NCBI GenBank assembly: GCA_035381305.1
Contig: DAOSYK010000005.1
Location: 9,534-73,533 of the forward strand
DNA length: 64,000 nucleotides
Source of the DNA: Clostridia bacterium
GTDB lineage: Bacteria; Bacillota; Clostridia; Christensenellales; DTU072
Direction: 5' to 3'
The translations under genes were made by a program, and so were the position numbers. Shown piece after piece: positions 1,734 through 8,961 of the stretch (within the stretch, counting starts at the first letter, position 1; each line of letters starts with the position of its first letter). The notes under the pieces are model-generated. The model made no database searches, was not told the origin of the DNA, and saw only the letters and a list, made by a program, of their open reading frames with translations.

Positions 1734-3356
1734 ATGGCCGAAAACAATAAAAAAATGGTTGCTAACGCGGATTTTGAGAAGGAAAAGAACGTCATTTTGG
1801 ATATTGACAACCTTTCCTATATCTGCGATTACTGTGGTAAGGTAAATCAGATGGGAGCGCCCCGTTGTGTCCGTTGCGGCAAAAGACGTCCCCGCAGCGA
1901 GTACATAGACGCGATGAACAAAATCAAGAGCGCCAAATCCATCAAGACCGAGTATCTCGAAGAGCAGTACCAGTTCGAGGAAGAGAAAAAGGAAGCCGCC
2001 CAACAGCAACTTGTCAGGATCGTCGAAAGCAGAGTCGAAGAAGAAAAGAGGAGCATTTACGCCCAGGAAGAGCTGCGCAGAGAGCAGGAGAGAGAGGCTA
2101 TCAAGAAGTCCACGGCAAGAGACGCCGTGCTCCGCATAATCGCCGCCGAAAAAGCCGCCGAAGACAGAGTGAGAGAGGCCGAACAGAGGGCCGAAGACGC
2201 TGTCAAGGGCCGCAACAAAGAGATAGAAGGCATTGTCGAAGAAGAGCGCAAGAAGGTGCTCGAAGCCGCCGCCCAGAAGGTGGTCGCCGCCAGAGCCGGC
2301 ATTGAGGAAGCCGCCAGAGAACAGATAGAGGCCAACAAGAAGATAGCCGATAAGTTCGTAAGAGAGACCCTCGAGACCGAGCGCGACAAGGCCGAGCGCA
2401 GCGCCGCAAGAAGAGCGGTACTTCGCATAATCGCCGCCGAAAAAGCCGCCGATGAGAAGATTAAGACGGCAAAAGACGCGCTCCAGCAGGCAGCTGTCGA
2501 GAGAATAATCGAAGAAAGAACCCTCGCCGACAAGGAAGCCGCCGCAAGGTATCTTGCCGAAAAGCAGGCTATCGAGAGAGCCGCCGACGAGAGAATAAGA
2601 GCCGAAAAGGAAGTGATAAGAAAGCTCCTCGAAGGCAGACAGACCGCTTTTGCGGACGCGGGCGCGGTTCCGACTTATCAGCAGTCCGTAGCGACCGGTA
2701 TGCCGCAACAGAGCTTTGTTCAGCCGCTTACCATCGTGCCTTACGTAAACACCAATCAGCCTTTATATCAGTACAGACCCCATCAGGTCTATAAATTCGT
2801 ACCCAAGCAGACCCAACCTCAGCAGGAAGTGGGCAAAAAGGCAAAGGGCGGAAAAAACGCTCCCGCGCCCGTTCCCGCAGTCAGCGCGGCTCCCGCTGCG
2901 GCTCAGATATCGGCTCCTGCCGTTGAAAAGCCCAAGAGCGGAAGAGCGAGAGGAATGGGAATAATAACCCTTATCCTTGCCGCCGCGGCGCTTGTACTTG
3001 CACTGCTTCCTCAAATTGTTTCGGGATTCCTGCCCGACGCGGGCTTTCCCGAAATTACCGCCATCGTGGGTATAATGGACCTTGAAGGCAACGAAATGCT
3101 CAAGGTTATCGGCTTTACCGTATTTGTCGCGTTCGCGTTCATAACGGTAATTCAGAGCGTAATAAGGGTAATCAGAGGCAAAGCCGCCGCTGCAGGTTTC
3201 ATTATTCCGCTTATCGCCTGCGCAGGTCTCGGACTTAGCATGTATACGCTGGGAGAAGGAGCCCTTGCGATAATGCCCATGGTCATTGCGGGTGTCAGCG
3301 TACTTTTGCTGATATTCAGCATAATTGGCGGCGTGAAGTCAAAAAAAGCCAAATAA
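1734..3356 (+). CDS. array member A: zinc-ribbon / coiled-coil / 4-TM membrane protein, function unknown
   Basis: AGGAG 8 nt before ATG 1734 (the track ORF starts at upstream TTG 1716). CxxC-x10-CxxC zinc ribbon (CDYCGK..CVRCGK, nt 1824-1880). About 230 aa of E/A/K/R-rich coiled coil with an internal duplication. Motif VQPLTIVPYVNTNQPLYQY (2718-2774). P/A-rich linker, then four TM helices ending KSKKAK. Confidence 0.85.
   Translation: MAENNKKMVANADFEKEKNVILDIDNLSYICDYCGKVNQMGAPRCVRCGKRRPRSEYIDAMNKIKSAKSIKTEYLEEQYQFEEEKKEAAQQQLVRIVESRVEEEKRSIYAQEELRREQEREAIKKSTARDAVLRIIAAEKAAEDRVREAEQRAEDAVKGRNKEIEGIVEEERKKVLEAAAQKVVAARAGIEEAAREQIEANKKIADKFVRETLETERDKAERSAARRAVLRIIAAEKAADEKIKTAKDALQQAAVERIIEERTLADKEAAARYLAEKQAIERAADERIRAEKEVIRKLLEGRQTAFADAGAVPTYQQSVATGMPQQSFVQPLTIVPYVNTNQPLYQYRPHQVYKFVPKQTQPQQEVGKKAKGGKNAPAPVPAVSAAPAAAQISAPAVEKPKSGRARGMGIITLILAAAALVLALLPQIVSGFLPDAGFPEITAIVGIMDLEGNEMLKVIGFTVFVAFAFITVIQSVIRVIRGKAAAAGFIIPLIACAGLGLSMYTLGEGALAIMPMVIAGVSVLLLIFSIIGGVKSKKAK
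2133..2452 (+). repeat. direct repeat inside gene A (about 97-aa coiled-coil unit duplicated)
   Basis: The identical 29-mer cgcataatcgccgccgaaaaagccgccga occurs at 2133-2161 and 2424-2452, 291 bp (97 codons) apart. The peptides are AR(D/R)AVLRIIAAEKAA(E/D) in both copies. Confidence 0.9.
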
Positions 3357-3372
3357 CAACCGATTACAAATT

Positions 3373-3399
3373 GTAGCCTTATATTAAGGCTGCTTTTTT
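3373..3399 (+). terminator. rho-independent terminator after gene A
   Basis: gtagcctta / taaggctgc stem (one G-U pair), 3-5 nt loop, followed by TTTTTT (3394-3399). Confidence 0.6.
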
Positions 3400-3425
3400 A
3401 TAAGTTACCGTTTAAGGAGAAATGT

Positions 3426-4289
3426 ATGGCAAAAAAGAACGAAACACCCAATATGCCCGCCAAGAGCATTGACGAGATGACCGACATCGAGTTCATCACC
3501 TCGGCGGACTACCTTGCCAGCCCCTATTACAGGGCATACATAAGCGCAAAATCCAGACTTTCGGATGAAGCGTACCAACCCCTTTCCAAAACTTATGACA
3601 AGCCTGCAACTTCCGCAAAGAGCGCCGCTGCCCGCGACGTTCAGCCCAAAGCAGCTGCAAGGTCGGGCAAAAAGATAAAAGGCGCCGTCTACTCCAAAAA
3701 GCGCGGCGTTGCGCACTTCTTTATCACGTTATTTATGCTGGTAATTATCGCGGTAGCGGTACTCGGCTTTATAGATCTCTCTTACGGGGCGGTTTACGTA
3801 AGACCGGGCGTAACAGAGGATACCGACATCAACTTCTACCTTCTTGACCCCGTTTTCGGCGTAATTAAGAAGTTTGCCGATGTGGACCTCGATAGCTACT
3901 ACTTTGACAGCTTTGTGTCCAACTTGTCGGAAAACACCGAAATTATGGTCAAGGTCGCGCTCTACGCGGTTCCCTCGGCGGCTCTTCTTATCCTTATCTG
4001 CGCCCTTATCGGGTTCTTCAAGGGTATTGTCGCTATGTGCTCAAAGAGGCAGGCTAACGGCATGTACAAAAAGTTCAAGTTAGGATTCCTTAGCTTGGTT
4101 ATGCTTCTCAGCGCGCTTATAATGCTCGTCGGCGGAATCTTCGCCAGCGGCCAGGAAATCACCGTTATTCTTGACTTTATACTCGGCAAGACCAACGCGC
4201 TTTGCGCAGGCTACGGACTTTATGCCCTTGTCGTTCTGCCCATAATCACGTTTATCTTAAGCTGCATAGGCTATAAGAAAGCGAAATAA
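3426..4289 (+). CDS. array member B: 4-TM membrane protein, function unknown
   Basis: AAGGAGA RBS before the ATG. About 95-aa basic/Ala-Ser-rich N-terminus. TM1 HFFITLFMLVIIAVAVLGF. Loop with LDPVFGVIKKF (3840-3860). Three more TM helices, the last beginning GYGLYALVV and ending YKKAK. Confidence 0.85.
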   Translation: MAKKNETPNMPAKSIDEMTDIEFITSADYLASPYYRAYISAKSRLSDEAYQPLSKTYDKPATSAKSAAARDVQPKAAARSGKKIKGAVYSKKRGVAHFFITLFMLVIIAVAVLGFIDLSYGAVYVRPGVTEDTDINFYLLDPVFGVIKKFADVDLDSYYFDSFVSNLSENTEIMVKVALYAVPSAALLILICALIGFFKGIVAMCSKRQANGMYKKFKLGFLSLVMLLSALIMLVGGIFASGQEITVILDFILGKTNALCAGYGLYALVVLPIITFILSCIGYKKAK

Positions 4290-4315
4290 GAAAAAGCATT
4301 TACAAAAACTAAAAA

Positions 4316-4342
4316 AGAGCGGCAAATTACGGCCGCTCTTTT
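4316..4342 (+). terminator. rho-independent terminator after gene B
   Basis: agagcggc (4316-4323) pairs with gccgctct (4332-4339), 8-nt loop, then TTT. Confidence 0.6.
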
Positions 4343-4604
4343 ACGTTTGGTAAAACTTTACTTGGTCGAAAATCGCCCGTTATGGCGGGTTTTATAGTAT
4401 AATTAACATCGTAAAAACAGTTTATTGCAAGGGTAATCGGCGTCAAATTTCGCGAAAAACTTTTTGCTTTATACTATTGTAATTTTTTATATAGTATGAT
4501 AAACTATTTTATATAATAATGGGATTATGGGTTATTCTGCACTTTTGACGGAAAAACGAACGTTTTGAGCGCATATTGTCCCAAAACCCTCACAAGGTGG
4601 TAAA

Positions 4605-5669
4605 ATGGCAAACAACACGTTGGGCGGTTACAATAATTACAATGCCAGGGGATCATACCCCAATTACGGCATGCCCAATCAGCAGCCCGTAAAATCCGCC
4701 GCTCCCGTAAAGAAAAGCAAAAAGGAGCAGAAGCAGGAAGCCAAGAAGCTGCAGTCGAAGGAATACAACAAGGTCATGAGAGCTCGTCAGGAGCGCGCCC
4801 TTGAGAATATCGAGTATCGCAGAAAAGTGGAAGCGATAAACCAAAACTACGGCGGCATGGACAGGGCGATATACAAACTCGCGGCAGATGTCAAACCGAG
4901 AAAAGAAAAAGATTATTTCTTTGTCATGAGGAAAGGCGCCTGCTTTTTTACGTTTTTATTCACCCTTGTGACCATAGCCGTATTTGTCTTAAGCTACCTT
5001 AAACTCGACCTTATCCCCGCAGAATACATATCGATATACATTGAGACCGAGGCTGCCCCCGTTGAAGAGGGGGAAGGCCCCGTTGCAGAAGCGGCAGGAG
5101 AGAACGAAGCTGATGAAGAAGCGGACGAAGAAGAGGAAGAGGCAGGCTCCGATGTCCTTGCGTCCTACTCTGTTCTCGATCCCGTTTTCGGATTTATAAA
5201 GCACCTTACGGGCAAGTTCCTCAACAAGGAAGTCGTTTTGGGCGAAAGCCCCCTCTATGACGCCATGGTGGCAAAGAGCGAAGTTGGCATGGCCGACATG
5301 GTCGCCGGCATTGCGCTGGAGTACTTCCCTGCATTTATCATAATCTACATTATCACGGCGATTATCATGTTCTTCAAAGCGTTTTTCGCCATGTTCGGCA
5401 GAAGGATTTTCAAGTGCTTCGGTCTTGGAAGCTTTATTATGATACTTTGCGGCGGAGTTATGGCGCTTGCGGGTCTTGCGTTTACCACCGAGCCCGGCGC
5501 GGCAATGGCTTACGGCGACATTATCAATATACTTATCGGCGGCATTATGGGTACGGGCGGCTTTACCGCGGGATACGGCCTTCTCGGGCTTATCGTGATA
5601 CCCGTCTTGACGCTTATATTCAGCATGTTTGCCCGCAAAAAAGTGCCTTACAGCATATTTGACAATTAA
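4605..5669 (+). CDS. array member C: 4-TM membrane protein, function unknown
   Basis: AAGGTGG RBS. N-terminus is G/Y/N/P/Q-rich (GGYNNYNARGSYPNYGMPNQQP), then K/E-rich. TM1 is followed by an acidic insert (ENEADEEADEEEEEA) and LDPVFGFIKHL (5175-5195). Three further TMs, the last beginning GYGLLGLIV, tail ARKK. Confidence 0.85.
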   Translation: MANNTLGGYNNYNARGSYPNYGMPNQQPVKSAAPVKKSKKEQKQEAKKLQSKEYNKVMRARQERALENIEYRRKVEAINQNYGGMDRAIYKLAADVKPRKEKDYFFVMRKGACFFTFLFTLVTIAVFVLSYLKLDLIPAEYISIYIETEAAPVEEGEGPVAEAAGENEADEEADEEEEEAGSDVLASYSVLDPVFGFIKHLTGKFLNKEVVLGESPLYDAMVAKSEVGMADMVAGIALEYFPAFIIIYIITAIIMFFKAFFAMFGRRIFKCFGLGSFIMILCGGVMALAGLAFTTEPGAAMAYGDIINILIGGIMGTGGFTAGYGLLGLIVIPVLTLIFSMFARKKVPYSIFDN

Positions 5670-5682
5670 TAAGGAGTGAAAT

Positions 5683-5901
5683 ATGGCAAGAAAGAGCAAA
5701 AAGGATGATTTTTACGAACAGGATATGATGGAGTATTATCCCCAGGGGCCGCAACCGTTCTTCGGGCCTGTTCCGGGCATAATTCCCGTTGCTCCGCCTT
5801 CACATACCATTCAGCTTACTCCCATCATTCAGCCCATTGCGATAGTGCCTTACTCCAATCAGCAGCAGTCTGTCGCTTCGAATGATGACGACGACGAATA
5901 A
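5683..5901 (+). CDS. array member D: 72-aa soluble motif-only protein
   Basis: AAGGAG RBS, 13 nt after the stop of C. No TM segment. Carries IQLTPIIQPIAIVPYSNQQQ (motif core 5827-5868) and an acidic end, NDDDDE. Confidence 0.65.
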   Translation: MARKSKKDDFYEQDMMEYYPQGPQPFFGPVPGIIPVAPPSHTIQLTPIIQPIAIVPYSNQQQSVASNDDDDE

Positions 5902-5917
5902 GAGGAGCAAACGTCTT

Positions 5918-6607
5918 ATGGCAAAACAGCAAATGGTTGACAATGTTAAAACGACGGAAGACGTCCTTGTGCCGGTAAAACCGGCTCAGGACAATTACCG
6001 TATCCCTTTTGTCACCGAGCCGAGCGCATTTATGATGTATGGAGAAAGCGCCCTTCAGGAGTTTAACGCCGAAGTCAAACGCGTCGAGGCGGAACTTCGC
6101 CGAGAGCTTTACAGCCCTGTGGAAGAGGAAGAGGAAAGACCCGCGAGAAAGACAAGCGCATGCGCAGTAATCGCACTTATCACACATCTTCTGGTTATCG
6201 CGCTTCTCATCATCGGACGCTTTGTGACCATCGAAGCTATCCCCGGTTTATTCGGGATAGTCGCCGAAAAGTCGGGACTTGATTATGTCCTTGGCTTTAT
6301 CGACGGACTCGGAAACGGAATAGAAGTAAATCCGCTCATTACCGTAATAGGCGTTGCTATAACCGCGCTGTTCTCGGTAATCGCGTTTTTAACCTCGATA
6401 TTTACAATTAAGAAGCCCACAGGCGTATTTATGAAAGTCTGTCTGTTCCTCAGCTTTGTCGGAGCCGTGCTCACCGCCGTTATGGTGATTGTGCAGGGTC
6501 AGGAAAACGGGATAGGGCTCTATATAGTCATCGGTCTTACGTTTATCGCCGCTCTCGCGGGATTCTGCTCGAGGAGCGCAAAGCGTAAACCCACGGAGGA
6601 TAAGTAA
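5918..6607 (+). CDS. array member E: 4-TM membrane protein, function unknown
   Basis: AGAGGAG RBS, then ATG 5918 (the track ORF starts at 5882 inside the end of D). About 95-aa N-terminal region, then the same 4-TM module (..GIGLYIVIGLTFIAALAGFCSRSAKRK). Confidence 0.8.
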   Translation: MAKQQMVDNVKTTEDVLVPVKPAQDNYRIPFVTEPSAFMMYGESALQEFNAEVKRVEAELRRELYSPVEEEEERPARKTSACAVIALITHLLVIALLIIGRFVTIEAIPGLFGIVAEKSGLDYVLGFIDGLGNGIEVNPLITVIGVAITALFSVIAFLTSIFTIKKPTGVFMKVCLFLSFVGAVLTAVMVIVQGQENGIGLYIVIGLTFIAALAGFCSRSAKRKPTEDK

Positions 6608-7347
6608 TGGCAAGGCTGCACACGCAAAATTCCAACTGGAAAACCGAAGCTCCGATGCCCGGGGCGCCCGTTGTCAACGAGGTTCGCCCCCAGAATGCCG
6701 TCGGAGAAATAAACGTTGTCACCAAGGTAGTCGCCGATTATGACCCCAACAACGTAACCTACGCGAGGACAATCGTTCAGCCGATTGCCATTGTGCCCTA
6801 CAACACGACCGAACAGCCCTTGTGGCAATACCCGTCACAACCTCGATTTGAAAATCCGTCCTATGACGGTTTTGAGGAAGGCGAGGAAGCCCCGCAAATG
6901 GCGAAGAAAGCGGGAAAAGGCGTAAACGGCATAAAGATATTTATGCTTATTCTGAGCCTTCTCTACATCGCGCTTGTCGTGGTCGGAAAGTTTGTCGACC
7001 TTGAGTATCTCAGATTCGACTCCACAAGGTCGGGACTTGACATAATAATGCTTATACTGCCTGCGTTTGAGGCGGAAGAACTGGTCATTATGGACATTCT
7101 GTTCCCCGCGCTGCTCGCGGCAAGCTGTCTGTTTACGGTAATCATTCTTCTCGCTTCCCTTTTCAGCATGAAAAAGGGCGTAGGTATATTCACAAAGATA
7201 ATGGCCATACTCGCATTCCTCACTCTCGGCGGATTCGGATATTTTCTGTTTGACGGAGAGCTTGGATTCGGTTACGGCTTATATGCCGCCGCAGGGCTTG
7301 CCTTGCTCAACCTCGTGCTTGCGCTTGTGGCAAAGAGAAGAAGATAA
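6607..7347 (+). CDS. array member F: motif-bearing 4-TM membrane protein
   Basis: The ATG overlaps the stop of E (TAATG). VQPIAIVPYNTTEQPLWQY (6775-6831), acidic linker, then the 4-TM module ending GYGLYAAAGLALLNLVLALVAKRRR. Confidence 0.85.
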   Translation: MARLHTQNSNWKTEAPMPGAPVVNEVRPQNAVGEINVVTKVVADYDPNNVTYARTIVQPIAIVPYNTTEQPLWQYPSQPRFENPSYDGFEEGEEAPQMAKKAGKGVNGIKIFMLILSLLYIALVVVGKFVDLEYLRFDSTRSGLDIIMLILPAFEAEELVIMDILFPALLAASCLFTVIILLASLFSMKKGVGIFTKIMAILAFLTLGGFGYFLFDGELGFGYGLYAAAGLALLNLVLALVAKRRR

Positions 7348-7359
7348 CAAGGAGTTGTT

Positions 7360-7671
7360 ATGAAGAAGAAAAGAAACGCACCCAACATGAATTTTGCCGA
7401 CGAAAACGTGGGATTTTCCAATCCCATCCCCACGCCCGACGCGCCCGGCATCGTGCTGCCCATCCCCAACGCGACCAGGGTAGTCGATAACGGCTTCGGC
7501 AAAACGGAACTTCCGGCATATATGTGCAGAGACCAGTACGGAAGAGTGTATCAGGTTCCCGTCCATTACGGCGCGCTGCCGGTGAGCGGTCCTGTGCCCA
7601 TTCCCGTGCCTTCTCAGGCTTCTCAGGTTCAGCCTATAGTCATACCCGTTGACGATAACAAAAGAATGTAA
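7360..7671 (+). CDS. array member G: 103-aa soluble Pro-rich protein with degenerate motif
   Basis: AAGGAG RBS. No TM segment. Pro-rich. The C-terminal SQVQPIVIPVDDNKRM (7627-7650) resembles the VQPIAIVPY motif. Confidence 0.6.
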   Translation: MKKKRNAPNMNFADENVGFSNPIPTPDAPGIVLPIPNATRVVDNGFGKTELPAYMCRDQYGRVYQVPVHYGALPVSGPVPIPVPSQASQVQPIVIPVDDNKRM

Positions 7672-7699
7672 AATACAAAATTAATCAGGGAGATCAGTG

Positions 7700-8614
7700 A
7701 TGGACAACAACAATGTACAGAATATCAATAACGGCATGCCCGCGTTAGGACCTAACGGACAGGAAGGAACATGGGTGCCGGTGGACCCCGGTACACTTCC
7801 CTTCACCGTGGGCGGCTCGCCCAATCAGCCCGTTCAGGGACCCGACGGCGCCTACTACTGCGTAGCGCAGGCCTCGCCTGATTTTGCCCCCATCGCGGCC
7901 AATCAGTACAACGCCATACCCACGCCCTCGCAGATAGTGCAGCTTCCGGCGATAGTGCAGCCCATTGCTTTGGTGCCCTACACTTCCCAGAATCAGCCTA
8001 TGCTGCAATACGACCCCGGCTATAAGCCCGAGGTACCCATGGGCAACACTGCCGACCCCGTCTACCGGGCAAAACCCTATTCGGCAATAAGCGTTCTGCT
8101 CGCCCTTTTCGCAGTGGTGTCCATAGTCGCTATGTGCGTGCTCACCTGCCTTAAAGGCGCTGCGGGAATGACGGGAATAGATACTATATTCGCCTTGCCC
8201 GCAAAGTTCGGCGTGGAAATGCTCGAAAGCGTATATTACACCGAAATGTTTGCGCTCCTTGGCGAAGGTACGGAAATCCTGCTTACCATTATCGTGTGGG
8301 CTATCCCCGTAATCTTCGCGCTTCTTATCGTGTTTGCGGCAATACTTACCGTTAAGTACCTCATTAGACTTGGCGGAAGAAAGTCTCCCAGATGCTTCAG
8401 CATCCTTGCTCTTATCGGGCTTATCCTTTCGGCGGCTGTGCTTGCTGTGACAGTCTTAAGCAACCCCCTGATAGGATACACACTTGAAGCGGGCATCGGA
8501 CTCTATATAGTTGTTGCTGCGTACCTGTTACTGTTCATCTTCCCCTTCTTTGCCAAGAAAGGTGCGGTGGCAGTTGACCTCGAAGCAAGCAAGAGAGTAT
8601 ACACATACCGCTGA
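7700..8614 (+). CDS. array member H: motif-bearing 4-TM membrane protein
   Basis: GGGAG RBS 7 nt before ATG 7700 (the track uses GTG 7697). IVQLPAIVQPIALVPYTSQNQPMLQY (motif 7955-8011), then the 4-TM module with GIGLYIVVAAYLLLFIFPFFAKKG. Confidence 0.85.
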   Translation: MDNNNVQNINNGMPALGPNGQEGTWVPVDPGTLPFTVGGSPNQPVQGPDGAYYCVAQASPDFAPIAANQYNAIPTPSQIVQLPAIVQPIALVPYTSQNQPMLQYDPGYKPEVPMGNTADPVYRAKPYSAISVLLALFAVVSIVAMCVLTCLKGAAGMTGIDTIFALPAKFGVEMLESVYYTEMFALLGEGTEILLTIIVWAIPVIFALLIVFAAILTVKYLIRLGGRKSPRCFSILALIGLILSAAVLAVTVLSNPLIGYTLEAGIGLYIVVAAYLLLFIFPFFAKKGAVAVDLEASKRVYTYR

Positions 8615-8736: not shown

Positions 8737-8961
8737 ATGGTATTCGAAAAAGTAAAGATCCTGCTTTCCGAGCAGTTTTCGGTTAACCCCGAATCAATAA
8801 CATTGGACAGTGACCTCGTTAAGGACCTCGGAGCCGACAGCCTCGACCTTGTTCAGCTCCTCATCACTATGGAGAAAGAGTTCGGCGTGGTGTTCGACGA
8901 CGAGCAGATTCAGAGCGTCAAAACCGTCGAAGATGTGGTAAACTTTATCGAATCACATTAA
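8737..8961 (+). CDS. acpP: acyl carrier protein
   Basis: 74 aa. LGADSLDLVQLLITMEKEFG contains the phosphopantetheine-attachment DSLD motif. AAAGGAG RBS. Confidence 0.9.
   Translation: MVFEKVKILLSEQFSVNPESITLDSDLVKDLGADSLDLVQLLITMEKEFGVVFDDEQIQSVKTVEDVVNFIESH

Follow-up and report, generated by a model that had tools for sequence, protein, structure and literature searches.

A motif that folds on binding typically reveals itself by strong conservation in a segment that is predicted to be disordered. In the closest described systems, the C-terminal peptide of FtsZ and the C-terminal tail of SSB, the segment is short, disordered and cytoplasmic, is better conserved than its flanks, is set off by a variable spacer and has a folded partner. 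A second comparison is offered by the RHIM, fungal PP and BASS motifs, in which ~20-30 residues common to the products of adjacent genes form the only obvious similarity between the tails. Here, a peptide motif rich in proline, glutamine and tyrosine was analyzed in a cluster of eight genes (A to H) from a Clostridia bacterium (GTDB lineage Christensenellales; DTU072), within 64,000 nucleotides of contig DAOSYK010000005.1 (assembly GCA_035381305.1, positions 9,534 to 73,533 of the forward strand), hereafter called the window. The cluster follows glnS and consists of six paralogous membrane proteins with four transmembrane helices (4-TM; A, B, C, E, F and H) and two small soluble proteins (D and G).

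The motif resembles the FtsZ and SSB peptides in these properties, its disorder being predicted and a folded partner presumed. However, FtsZ and SSB each represent one carrier with many readers, whereas here up to six products of one cluster carry the same peptide, and the module is longer (30-36 residues) and unrelated in sequence. Three of the features by which short linear motifs and molecular recognition features are recognized are found here as well, namely a segment predicted to be disordered (28-36 residues) that is better conserved than its flanks and occurs in varied architectures. The motif differs from RHIM, PP and BASS in being proline-rich (5-6 invariant prolines), in its position on paralogous membrane proteins and in the absence of a predicted strand or arch, and it lacks the defining features of the RHIM/BASS group. 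A shared docking motif is of a known kind, but the protein system around this one is undescribed.

The sequence-only reading of the window had proposed a motif with core and tail in five proteins, and translation returned each of the proposed peptides in A, D, F, H and G. The core, [VI]QP[IL][AT][IL]VPY, is present in A, D, F and H and the tail, QP[LM]xQY, in A, F and H, so that the description stands for these proteins, except that the tail is missing from D. The copies are listed below with the predicted local distance difference test (pLDDT) score of AlphaFold2 models where available.

2718-2774, + strand: motif copy A, core, VQPLTIVPYVNTNQPLYQY (translation)
2715..2804, + strand: motif copy A, extended A-type form, FVQPLTIVPYVNTNQPLYQYRPHQVYKFVP; pLDDT 39-50; kept in 65/65 A-family clusters
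5827-5868, + strand: motif copy D, core, IQPIAIVPYSNQQQ (translation)
5809..5868, + strand: motif copy D, pre-motif and core without the QPLxQY tail, IQLTPIIQPIAIVPYSNQQQ
6775-6831, + strand: motif copy F, core, VQPIAIVPYNTTEQPLWQY (translation)
6709..6831, + strand: motif copy F, conserved 41-residue block around the core, INVVTKVVADYDPNNVTYARTIVQPIAIVPYNTTEQPLWQY; mostly invariant in 7 clusters, down to 35% identity
7955-8011, + strand: motif copy H, core, VQPIALVPYTSQNQPMLQY (translation)
7928..8017, + strand: motif copy H, full form, SQIVQLPAIVQPIALVPYTSQNQPMLQYDP; near-invariant in 120/120 clusters; pLDDT 51-55
7627-7650, + strand: G segment VQPIVIPV (translation)
7624..7668, + strand: truncated motif remnant at the G C-terminus, QVQPIVIPVDDNKRM; aligned with ortholog modules

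In a six-frame translation of the whole 64 kb, a relaxed core pattern ([VI]QP[ILVM][ATVSC][ILVM][IV]P[YFV]) matched A, D, F and H only, and the tail pattern QP[LMIV]xQY matched A, F and H only. The residue frequencies predict 2.3e-4 core matches in the window, compared with the four observed, and 200 residue shuffles produced none. The DNA of the copies had been described as divergent while the peptide is kept. This is indeed the case: the four 27-base core copies differ from each other at 4-8 bases, mostly at synonymous positions (2-4 codons synonymous, 1-3 nonsynonymous). Thus, their similarity does not come from recent DNA copying.

The core agrees with its earlier description, but the conserved unit is longer and reaches ~30-36 residues in H, D and G (NAIPTPSxIVQLPPIVQPIALVPYTSQNQPLLQYDP). 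The consensus of this module is (PxPS-x)-[IV]Q[LM]xP[IV][VI]QP[ILF][AV][ILFM]VPY-x[ST]Qx-QP[LM]xQY. The G copy, which had been called degenerate, is a related segment but a truncated one. Its counterpart is the first part of the module (PxPS-x-IVQ-xx-PIV-xP), LVPY...QPLxQY having been lost, whereas G orthologs in locus L011 (7245-7586) and in P0292 and P0280 carry the full module at the C-terminus. By profile comparison (HHalign 96.7%, E 3.8e-10), the G C-terminus is homologous to the H motif region.

Conservation was assessed in the protein families of A, F and H, whose motif-bearing members range down to 34-35% whole-protein identity (34% for H). All 65 clusters of the A family carry [VITA]QP[LFIM]x[IV]VPY[VL]NxxQPxxQ[YTK]...[YF][KR]F[VI]P. 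The H family comprises at least 138 clusters, and the 120 of them that are listed, to which the motif counts refer, all contain S-x-IVQ[LM]PPIVQPIALVPY[TA]SQNQP[LM][LV]QYDP with most positions invariant. In the F family (7/7 clusters), INVVTKVVxDYDPNNVTxARTIVQPIAIVPYNTxEQPLxQY is almost invariant down to 35% identity. The motif is thus retained in the orthologous arrays. Its 28-residue window is the most conserved part of H (entropy 0.32 bits, compared with 2.01 elsewhere), and in H-type copies two tyrosines and five to six prolines within these 28 residues are invariant or nearly so. Other residues are paralog-specific yet have been conserved over long times (for example, TSQN in H, VNxN in A and NTxE in F).

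The proportion of synonymous differences (pS) is ~0.8, which is saturated, both inside and outside the motif. A ratio of nonsynonymous to synonymous substitution rates (dN/dS) proper cannot be estimated under this saturation, and proportions of nonsynonymous differences (pN) are reported instead: 0.13 in the motif and 0.41 outside it for H, and 0.17 and 0.36 for A. The pN of the motif, ~2-3 times lower than elsewhere in the protein at saturated pS, bears out the proposal of purifying selection at the peptide level.

An exhaustive search of 1.84e9 representative proteins was made with a 33-position profile hidden Markov model of the motif (E <=1e-3). Among the 140 matches, 138 carry the motif or an obvious variant, the exceptions being P0244 and P0281; the motif is therefore not a general property of P/Q-rich proteins. 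The matches are cluster-type proteins that combine the motif with a 4-TM domain or a zinc ribbon, or that are small and soluble. They include A-type proteins (ribbon, coiled coil, motif and 4-TM domain), double-ribbon A-type proteins without the coiled coil, F-, H- and G-type proteins, many D-type proteins (49-115 aa, soluble, with an acidic and often aromatic tail) and soluble proteins in which a C-terminal motif follows as many as four zinc ribbons. In P0208, P0228, P0252, P0275 and P0283, the N-terminal domain of H (N-domain, GxWVPVD...GPDGxYYC) precedes the motif in soluble proteins without transmembrane helices, which indicates that this domain and the motif travel together.

Zinc ribbons are the only Pfam domains found to co-occur with the motif. 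The ribbon of A (CDYC...CVRC) scores 13.9 bits against a Pfam cut-off of 25, with all four cysteines nearly invariant, and the motif-bearing relatives P0198, P0220, P0286 and P0301 score 39-78 bits with Zn_Ribbon_1 or DZR; the thresholds are passed by relatives that have two to four ribbons. Membrane proteins of the Zn_Ribbon_1/DZR type (PF13240, PF12773) likewise consist of a ribbon, a linker and a multi-pass membrane domain. However, the membrane domain here has no Pfam match, and the motif is not described there. Scans of Pfam, NCBIfam, PADLOC and PHROGs placed all eight proteins in no family above threshold, a PDB sequence search with the motif and H profiles gave no match, and a literature search for the motif strings and keywords returned nothing relevant. 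As far as these searches reach, the motif and the cluster proteins are represented neither in Pfam nor among solved structures, and no paper describes them. A phage origin was also considered and rejected: in 2.9 million IMG/VR viral contigs the 8-residue core turned up 3 times, by chance, and in no case together with the flanking elements.

The motif had been described as lying in otherwise dissimilar regions, but the proteins themselves are related through their membrane domains. HHalign profile comparisons show the 4-TM domains to be paralogous. H aligns with F (98.9%) and with A (99.5%) over the motif and all four transmembrane helices, and over the transmembrane domain only with B (98.9%) and E (95.5%); B and C also align over this domain (99.9%). 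Since motif and helices align as one unit in H, F and A, the ancestral unit was motif, spacer and 4-TM domain, and the likeness of A, F and H is, on these profile alignments, one of common descent of that unit and not of independent acquisition. B, C and E carry conserved N-terminal elements of other kinds. That of E, PFVTEPSAFMMYGESALQEF, was tried as a divergent motif copy and dropped (HHalign of the motif profile against E, 0.3%).

AlphaFold2 models are consistent with a short linear motif. For H, modeled from a 120-sequence alignment (mean pLDDT 82.9), the 4-TM domain exceeds 90 and the N-domain (residues 21-60) reaches 77-86, whereas residues 61-110, which include the motif, are at 51-55 and have no secondary structure. 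The A model (65 sequences) consists of the zinc ribbon, a single helix (54-292), a disordered stretch (291-399) that holds the motif at pLDDT 37-50, and four transmembrane helices. The distance from the motif end to the first transmembrane helix (TM1) is ~23 residues in H, 33 in F and 56 in A, close to the 25-60 proposed earlier, and the spacer ranges overall from 23 to >60; this variable spacing and the occurrence of the motif on proteins without a transmembrane domain also agree with the linear-motif reading. The more specific suggestion of a beta-strand docking element gains no particular support, with no strand predicted and 5-6 invariant prolines in the segment.

The predicted cytoplasmic location of the motif is supported. 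Lysine and arginine are concentrated ahead of TM1, between TM2 and TM3, and in the C-terminal tail, and the TM1-TM2 loop is acidic. This positive-inside distribution places the N-terminus and motif in the cytoplasm. The presence of the Cys4 ribbon on that tail agrees with this placement, as does the absence of signal peptides.

The H model is a 4-TM bundle with cytoplasmic termini and short strands in the first outer loop, as in claudins, PMP22 and TARPs. In a Foldseek search of the PDB, the model came closest to claudin-3, claudin-4 and TARP gamma-2 and gamma-8, although none of these matches is significant (E >=0.12, TM-score <=0.53). The signature of the claudin superfamily is a tryptophan and a cysteine pair in loop 1. 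In contrast, there is no sequence similarity to these proteins and no W...C...C here, and loop 1 of H (149-193) has one cysteine and no tryptophan. Among the 120 H members, Pfam matches are weak throughout (Claudin_3 in 2, E 0.033; DUF996 in 13; Yip1 in 4), and Yip1 (PF04893), DUF996 and DUF6264 remain below the gathering threshold (DUF6264 24.3 vs 31 bits in A; Yip1 17.4 vs 28.6 bits in P0198). The claudin-like resemblance of the model is therefore taken as a lead and not as membership.

The genes stand in the following order, all on the + strand: glnS (67-1575), A to H, an acpP-like gene (8737-8961), secE, nusG, rplK, rplA and rplJ. Its genes and further conserved elements are as follows.

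1734..3356, + strand: gene A, 540 aa; zinc ribbon, long helix, disordered linker with the motif, 4-TM domain (open reading frame, AlphaFold2, 65 homolog clusters)
1824-1895, + strand: Cys4 zinc ribbon of A; C31, C34, C45 and C48 nearly invariant
3426..4289, + strand: gene B, 287 aa; 4-TM paralog without motif (HHalign, ortholog alignment)
3468-3548, + strand: conserved N-terminal element of B, IDEMTDIEFITSADYLASPYYRAYISA (ortholog alignment)
4605..5669, + strand: gene C, 354 aa; 4-TM paralog without motif (HHalign, B vs C 99.9%)
5637-5666, + strand: conserved C-terminus of C, KKVPYSIFDN; orthologs end in a nearly invariant KKVPYSIFD(N/V)
5683..5901, + strand: gene D, 72 aa; small soluble protein with basic N-terminus, motif and acidic tail (open reading frame)
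5918..6607, + strand: gene E, 229 aa from its likely start; 4-TM paralog (HHalign, start codon and ribosome-binding site)
5996-6064, + strand: conserved N-terminal element of E, YRIPFVTEPSAFMMYGESALQEF; a relation to the motif is not demonstrable
6607..7347, + strand: gene F, 246 aa; motif and 4-TM domain (7 homolog clusters)
7360..7671, + strand: gene G, 103 aa; small soluble protein (ortholog alignment)
7510-7614, + strand: conserved block of G, LPAYMCRDQYGRVYQ...PVPIPVPS (ortholog alignment)
7697..8614, + strand: gene H, 305 aa; N-domain, motif, juxtamembrane segment, 4-TM domain (at least 138 homolog clusters)
7766-7864, + strand: small N-terminal domain of H, GTWVPVD...GPDGAYYCV; conserved
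8057-8080, + strand: juxtamembrane segment of H, PVYRAKPY
1651-1679: promoter-like site before A
3373-3393: terminator-like site after A (hairpin)
4313-4342 and 4375-4390: terminator-like sites after B (hairpins)

Within the long helix of A (~240 residues), the segments ARDAVLRIIAAEKAAEDR (2115-2168) and ARRAVLRIIAAEKAADEK (2406-2459) form an internal repeat. In B orthologs, the cytoplasmic N-terminal element reads IDEMxDIEFIxSADYLxSPYYRAY, and an extra 4-TM paralog in locus L009 (15371-16024) bears a B-like element, ISYEDYLALPQFRSYV; the B-type element looks like a second tail motif common to cluster members. C orthologs carry DYFFVMRK (4911-4934 in the window) just before TM1. The acpP-like gene after H encodes a 74-aa PP-binding (acyl carrier protein-like) product and is found likewise in L002, L003, L007, L008, L009 and L011.

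For E, the most likely start is 5918 rather than 5882, judging from the AGAGGAG 10 nt upstream of the ATG at 5918 and from a methionine that is invariant in orthologs. With this start, D and E do not overlap. E and F overlap by one base (TAATG, 6605-6609), which suggests translational coupling, and the genes from C to H are packed or overlapping throughout. An AT-rich, promoter-like spacer precedes C (site 4468-4495, listed with the terminator-like ones). From these signals, the cluster probably forms three transcription units: A, B, and C-H. A lost D-type gene was considered for the B-C spacer (4290-4604) and none was found there, the spacer being made up of terminator-like and promoter-like sites.

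The cluster is conserved in position as well as in content. It lies directly after glnS in all loci whose context was looked up. The same cluster stands between glnS and acpP-(rpmG)-secE-nusG in the close relatives L001, L002, L005 and L006 and in the distant loci L007, L008, L009 and L011, with cluster size varying from 3 to 10 genes across relatives. D-type orthologs of 64-96 aa occupy the same position in L002, L005, L007, L008, L009 and L011. The G orthologs of L008 (15937-16362) and L009 (16940-17422) have an N-terminal zinc ribbon, whereas G of the window has none. In the L001/L006 lineage, the A ortholog has lost the 4-TM domain and keeps the motif. Reduced clusters of three genes, again directly after glnS, were found in L010 (8001-10872) and L013 (1282-4051); they encode a soluble multi-zinc-ribbon protein with a C-terminal motif and two 4-TM paralogs, and in L013 all three products carry the motif. 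The reduced cluster of L010 is followed by a Lactamase_B-fold gene and two genes for Rce1-like CPBP proteases.

Where given, source names are Christensenellales, Christensenellaceae, Clostridia or a Bacillota metagenome-assembled genome, and the proteins are always named 'hypothetical protein'. The breadth of the clade was inferred from protein clusters (searches with A and H); a scan of genome contigs with very narrow F-type patterns gave 2 genomes and understates it. Sludge and anaerobic digesters are the sources of the sequencing runs in which the window sequence occurs. The cluster is transcribed, as contigs covering A to H were found in three metatranscriptomes. One metatranscriptome contig (run X18) has an ACA insertion after 7703, which adds one codon in the Asn-rich N-terminus of H and indicates a population variant.

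Extreme conservation, predicted disorder, a variable spacer, unrelated scaffolds and restriction to one cluster in one clade together point to a module that folds on binding. The explanation that we favor, at roughly even chances, is that the module does so and thereby tethers the cluster products into one membrane complex. A stretch of ~30-36 residues with the motif as its core would act as an autonomous interaction module, intrinsically disordered and located in the cytoplasm. An ancestral unit of module, spacer and 4-TM domain would have duplicated into the paralog array. A, F and H would have retained the module, B, C and E would have lost it or had it replaced, and D, G and the zinc-ribbon proteins would have received it as well. 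The module would fold only upon binding, in trans, to a structured surface on a product of the cluster. Because the motif does not occur outside these families, its partner is probably clade-specific and, most simply, cluster-encoded; since all three L013 products carry the motif, a cluster-encoded receptor would have to be the zinc ribbon, the 4-TM domain or else the motif. Binding might take place on the Cys4 zinc ribbons, on a neighboring 4-TM paralog at its cytoplasmic face, or on the H N-domain. Binding would hold the 4-TM paralogs, the coiled-coil and zinc-ribbon protein A and the small soluble proteins in one membrane hetero-oligomer, in which the paralog-specific conserved residues would set the position of each subunit. 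The packed and overlapping genes C-H fit co-translation of such subunits.

Several observations weigh against this explanation. The paralogs B, C and E stand in the same cluster without the motif, and a cluster may hold as few as 2 or as many as 6 motif copies. In the AlphaFold2 monomers of H and A, the motif does not dock in cis onto its own zinc ribbon, N-domain or 4-TM domain, although such monomers are silent on docking in trans. The metatranscriptome contigs may include contaminating DNA, and conservation with disorder fits a recognition site for an enzyme equally well.

Such an enzyme site, for a protease that cleaves the cytoplasmic tails in a regulated way, a tyrosine kinase or phosphatase that acts on the two invariant tyrosines, or another modifying enzyme, would mark the cluster products for the same processing. 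Two invariant tyrosines and several invariant prolines in a segment predicted to be disordered and accessible, the presence of the same site on many products of one cluster, and the protease and Lactamase_B-fold genes that follow the reduced cluster of L010 would all agree with this. We consider it unlikely, however, because sites of cleavage or phosphorylation would be expected to be shorter than the 30 or more near-invariant residues seen here, the other loci looked at have no conserved protease or kinase gene alongside the cluster, and paralog-specific conserved positions are unexpected in a common substrate site. The partner could instead be a cellular machine whose genes lie outside the cluster (the divisome or a cytoskeletal filament, the ribosome, or Sec/YidC, for example), with the motif serving as a targeting signal. 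Hub ligands, for example those of the beta clamp, place one peptide on many proteins, as observed here, and in every long locus the cluster has secE-nusG and genes for ribosomal proteins as neighbors. Yet the secE adjacency is lost in L009, L010 and L013, and a universal partner should select for the motif in other lineages, whereas among 1.84e9 proteins it is confined to the cluster families. The known ligand classes do not fit either. Clamp-binding peptides follow QL[SD]LF or QLxLxL, with which the hydrophobic positions of the tail QP[LM]xQY are out of register; ligands of WW domains read PPxY or LPxY, whereas [IL]VPY has its proline at -1 and not at -2 or -3; and the sequence does not match SH3-ligand patterns. 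A targeting signal of this kind therefore seems improbable.

It is also conceivable that the motif has no separate function and is the slowest-evolving remnant of a folded juxtamembrane element, once part of the ancestral 4-TM protein, that packs on the transmembrane domain or the membrane. Its core, PIVQPIALVPY, is hydrophobic, and motif and 4-TM domain align as one unit in H, F and A. But the motif also occurs on proteins without transmembrane helices (D, G, zinc-ribbon and H N-domain proteins), its distance to TM1 varies, and AlphaFold2 does not pack it on the confidently predicted transmembrane domain, which leaves this explanation little likelihood. Cross-beta (amyloid-like) co-assembly of the RHIM/BASS type is very unlikely. 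A Q-rich, hydrophobic motif of 20-30 residues common to adjacent genes, with low-complexity Q/Y/P/G-rich flanks in several relatives, would suit it. Against this, the motif has five to six invariant prolines within 28 residues, and stacked beta-arches accommodate proline badly; no strand is predicted, and Pfam, NCBIfam and PADLOC scans detected no NLR-type (NB-ARC/NACHT), Bell or other effector domain. Finally, the tails are P/Q-rich, and the motif might have been a coincidence of composition. This is refuted by the four copies where 2.3e-4 are expected, by the same register and residues in orthologs down to 34% identity, by the confinement of all but 2 of the 140 profile matches to the same families, and by the viral-contig matches to the core, which come without the flanking elements.

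On the tethering explanation, a more far-reaching picture can be drawn, which we regard as speculative and rather doubtful. The glnS-adjacent cluster would encode a new Christensenellales membrane machine, in which claudin-like 4-TM subunits use disordered arms with a proline-rich 'zip code' to plug into the zinc-ribbon and coiled-coil scaffold A or into a neighboring subunit. An ordered hetero-oligomeric lattice or ring would result, with D and G as caps or competitors. If true, this would represent a new membrane-organizing system together with a new class of peptide-recognition pair.

Guts and anaerobic digesters harbor Clostridia of the Christensenellales type in abundance, yet hardly any of them have been cultured. 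In these bacteria, a cluster of fixed synteny beside glnS and the secE-nusG ribosomal block carries no annotation, and a peptide that is near-invariant across the clade provides an experimental handle on it. If the tethering explanation is correct, the motif and its receptor would form a new peptide-recognition pair and would show how paralogous four-helix membrane proteins are assembled, and a role could emerge for the zinc-ribbon modules of bacteria, which are widespread yet still unexplained. Should the motif instead be an enzyme site or bind an outside partner, it would still be the first functional clue for the families of this cluster.

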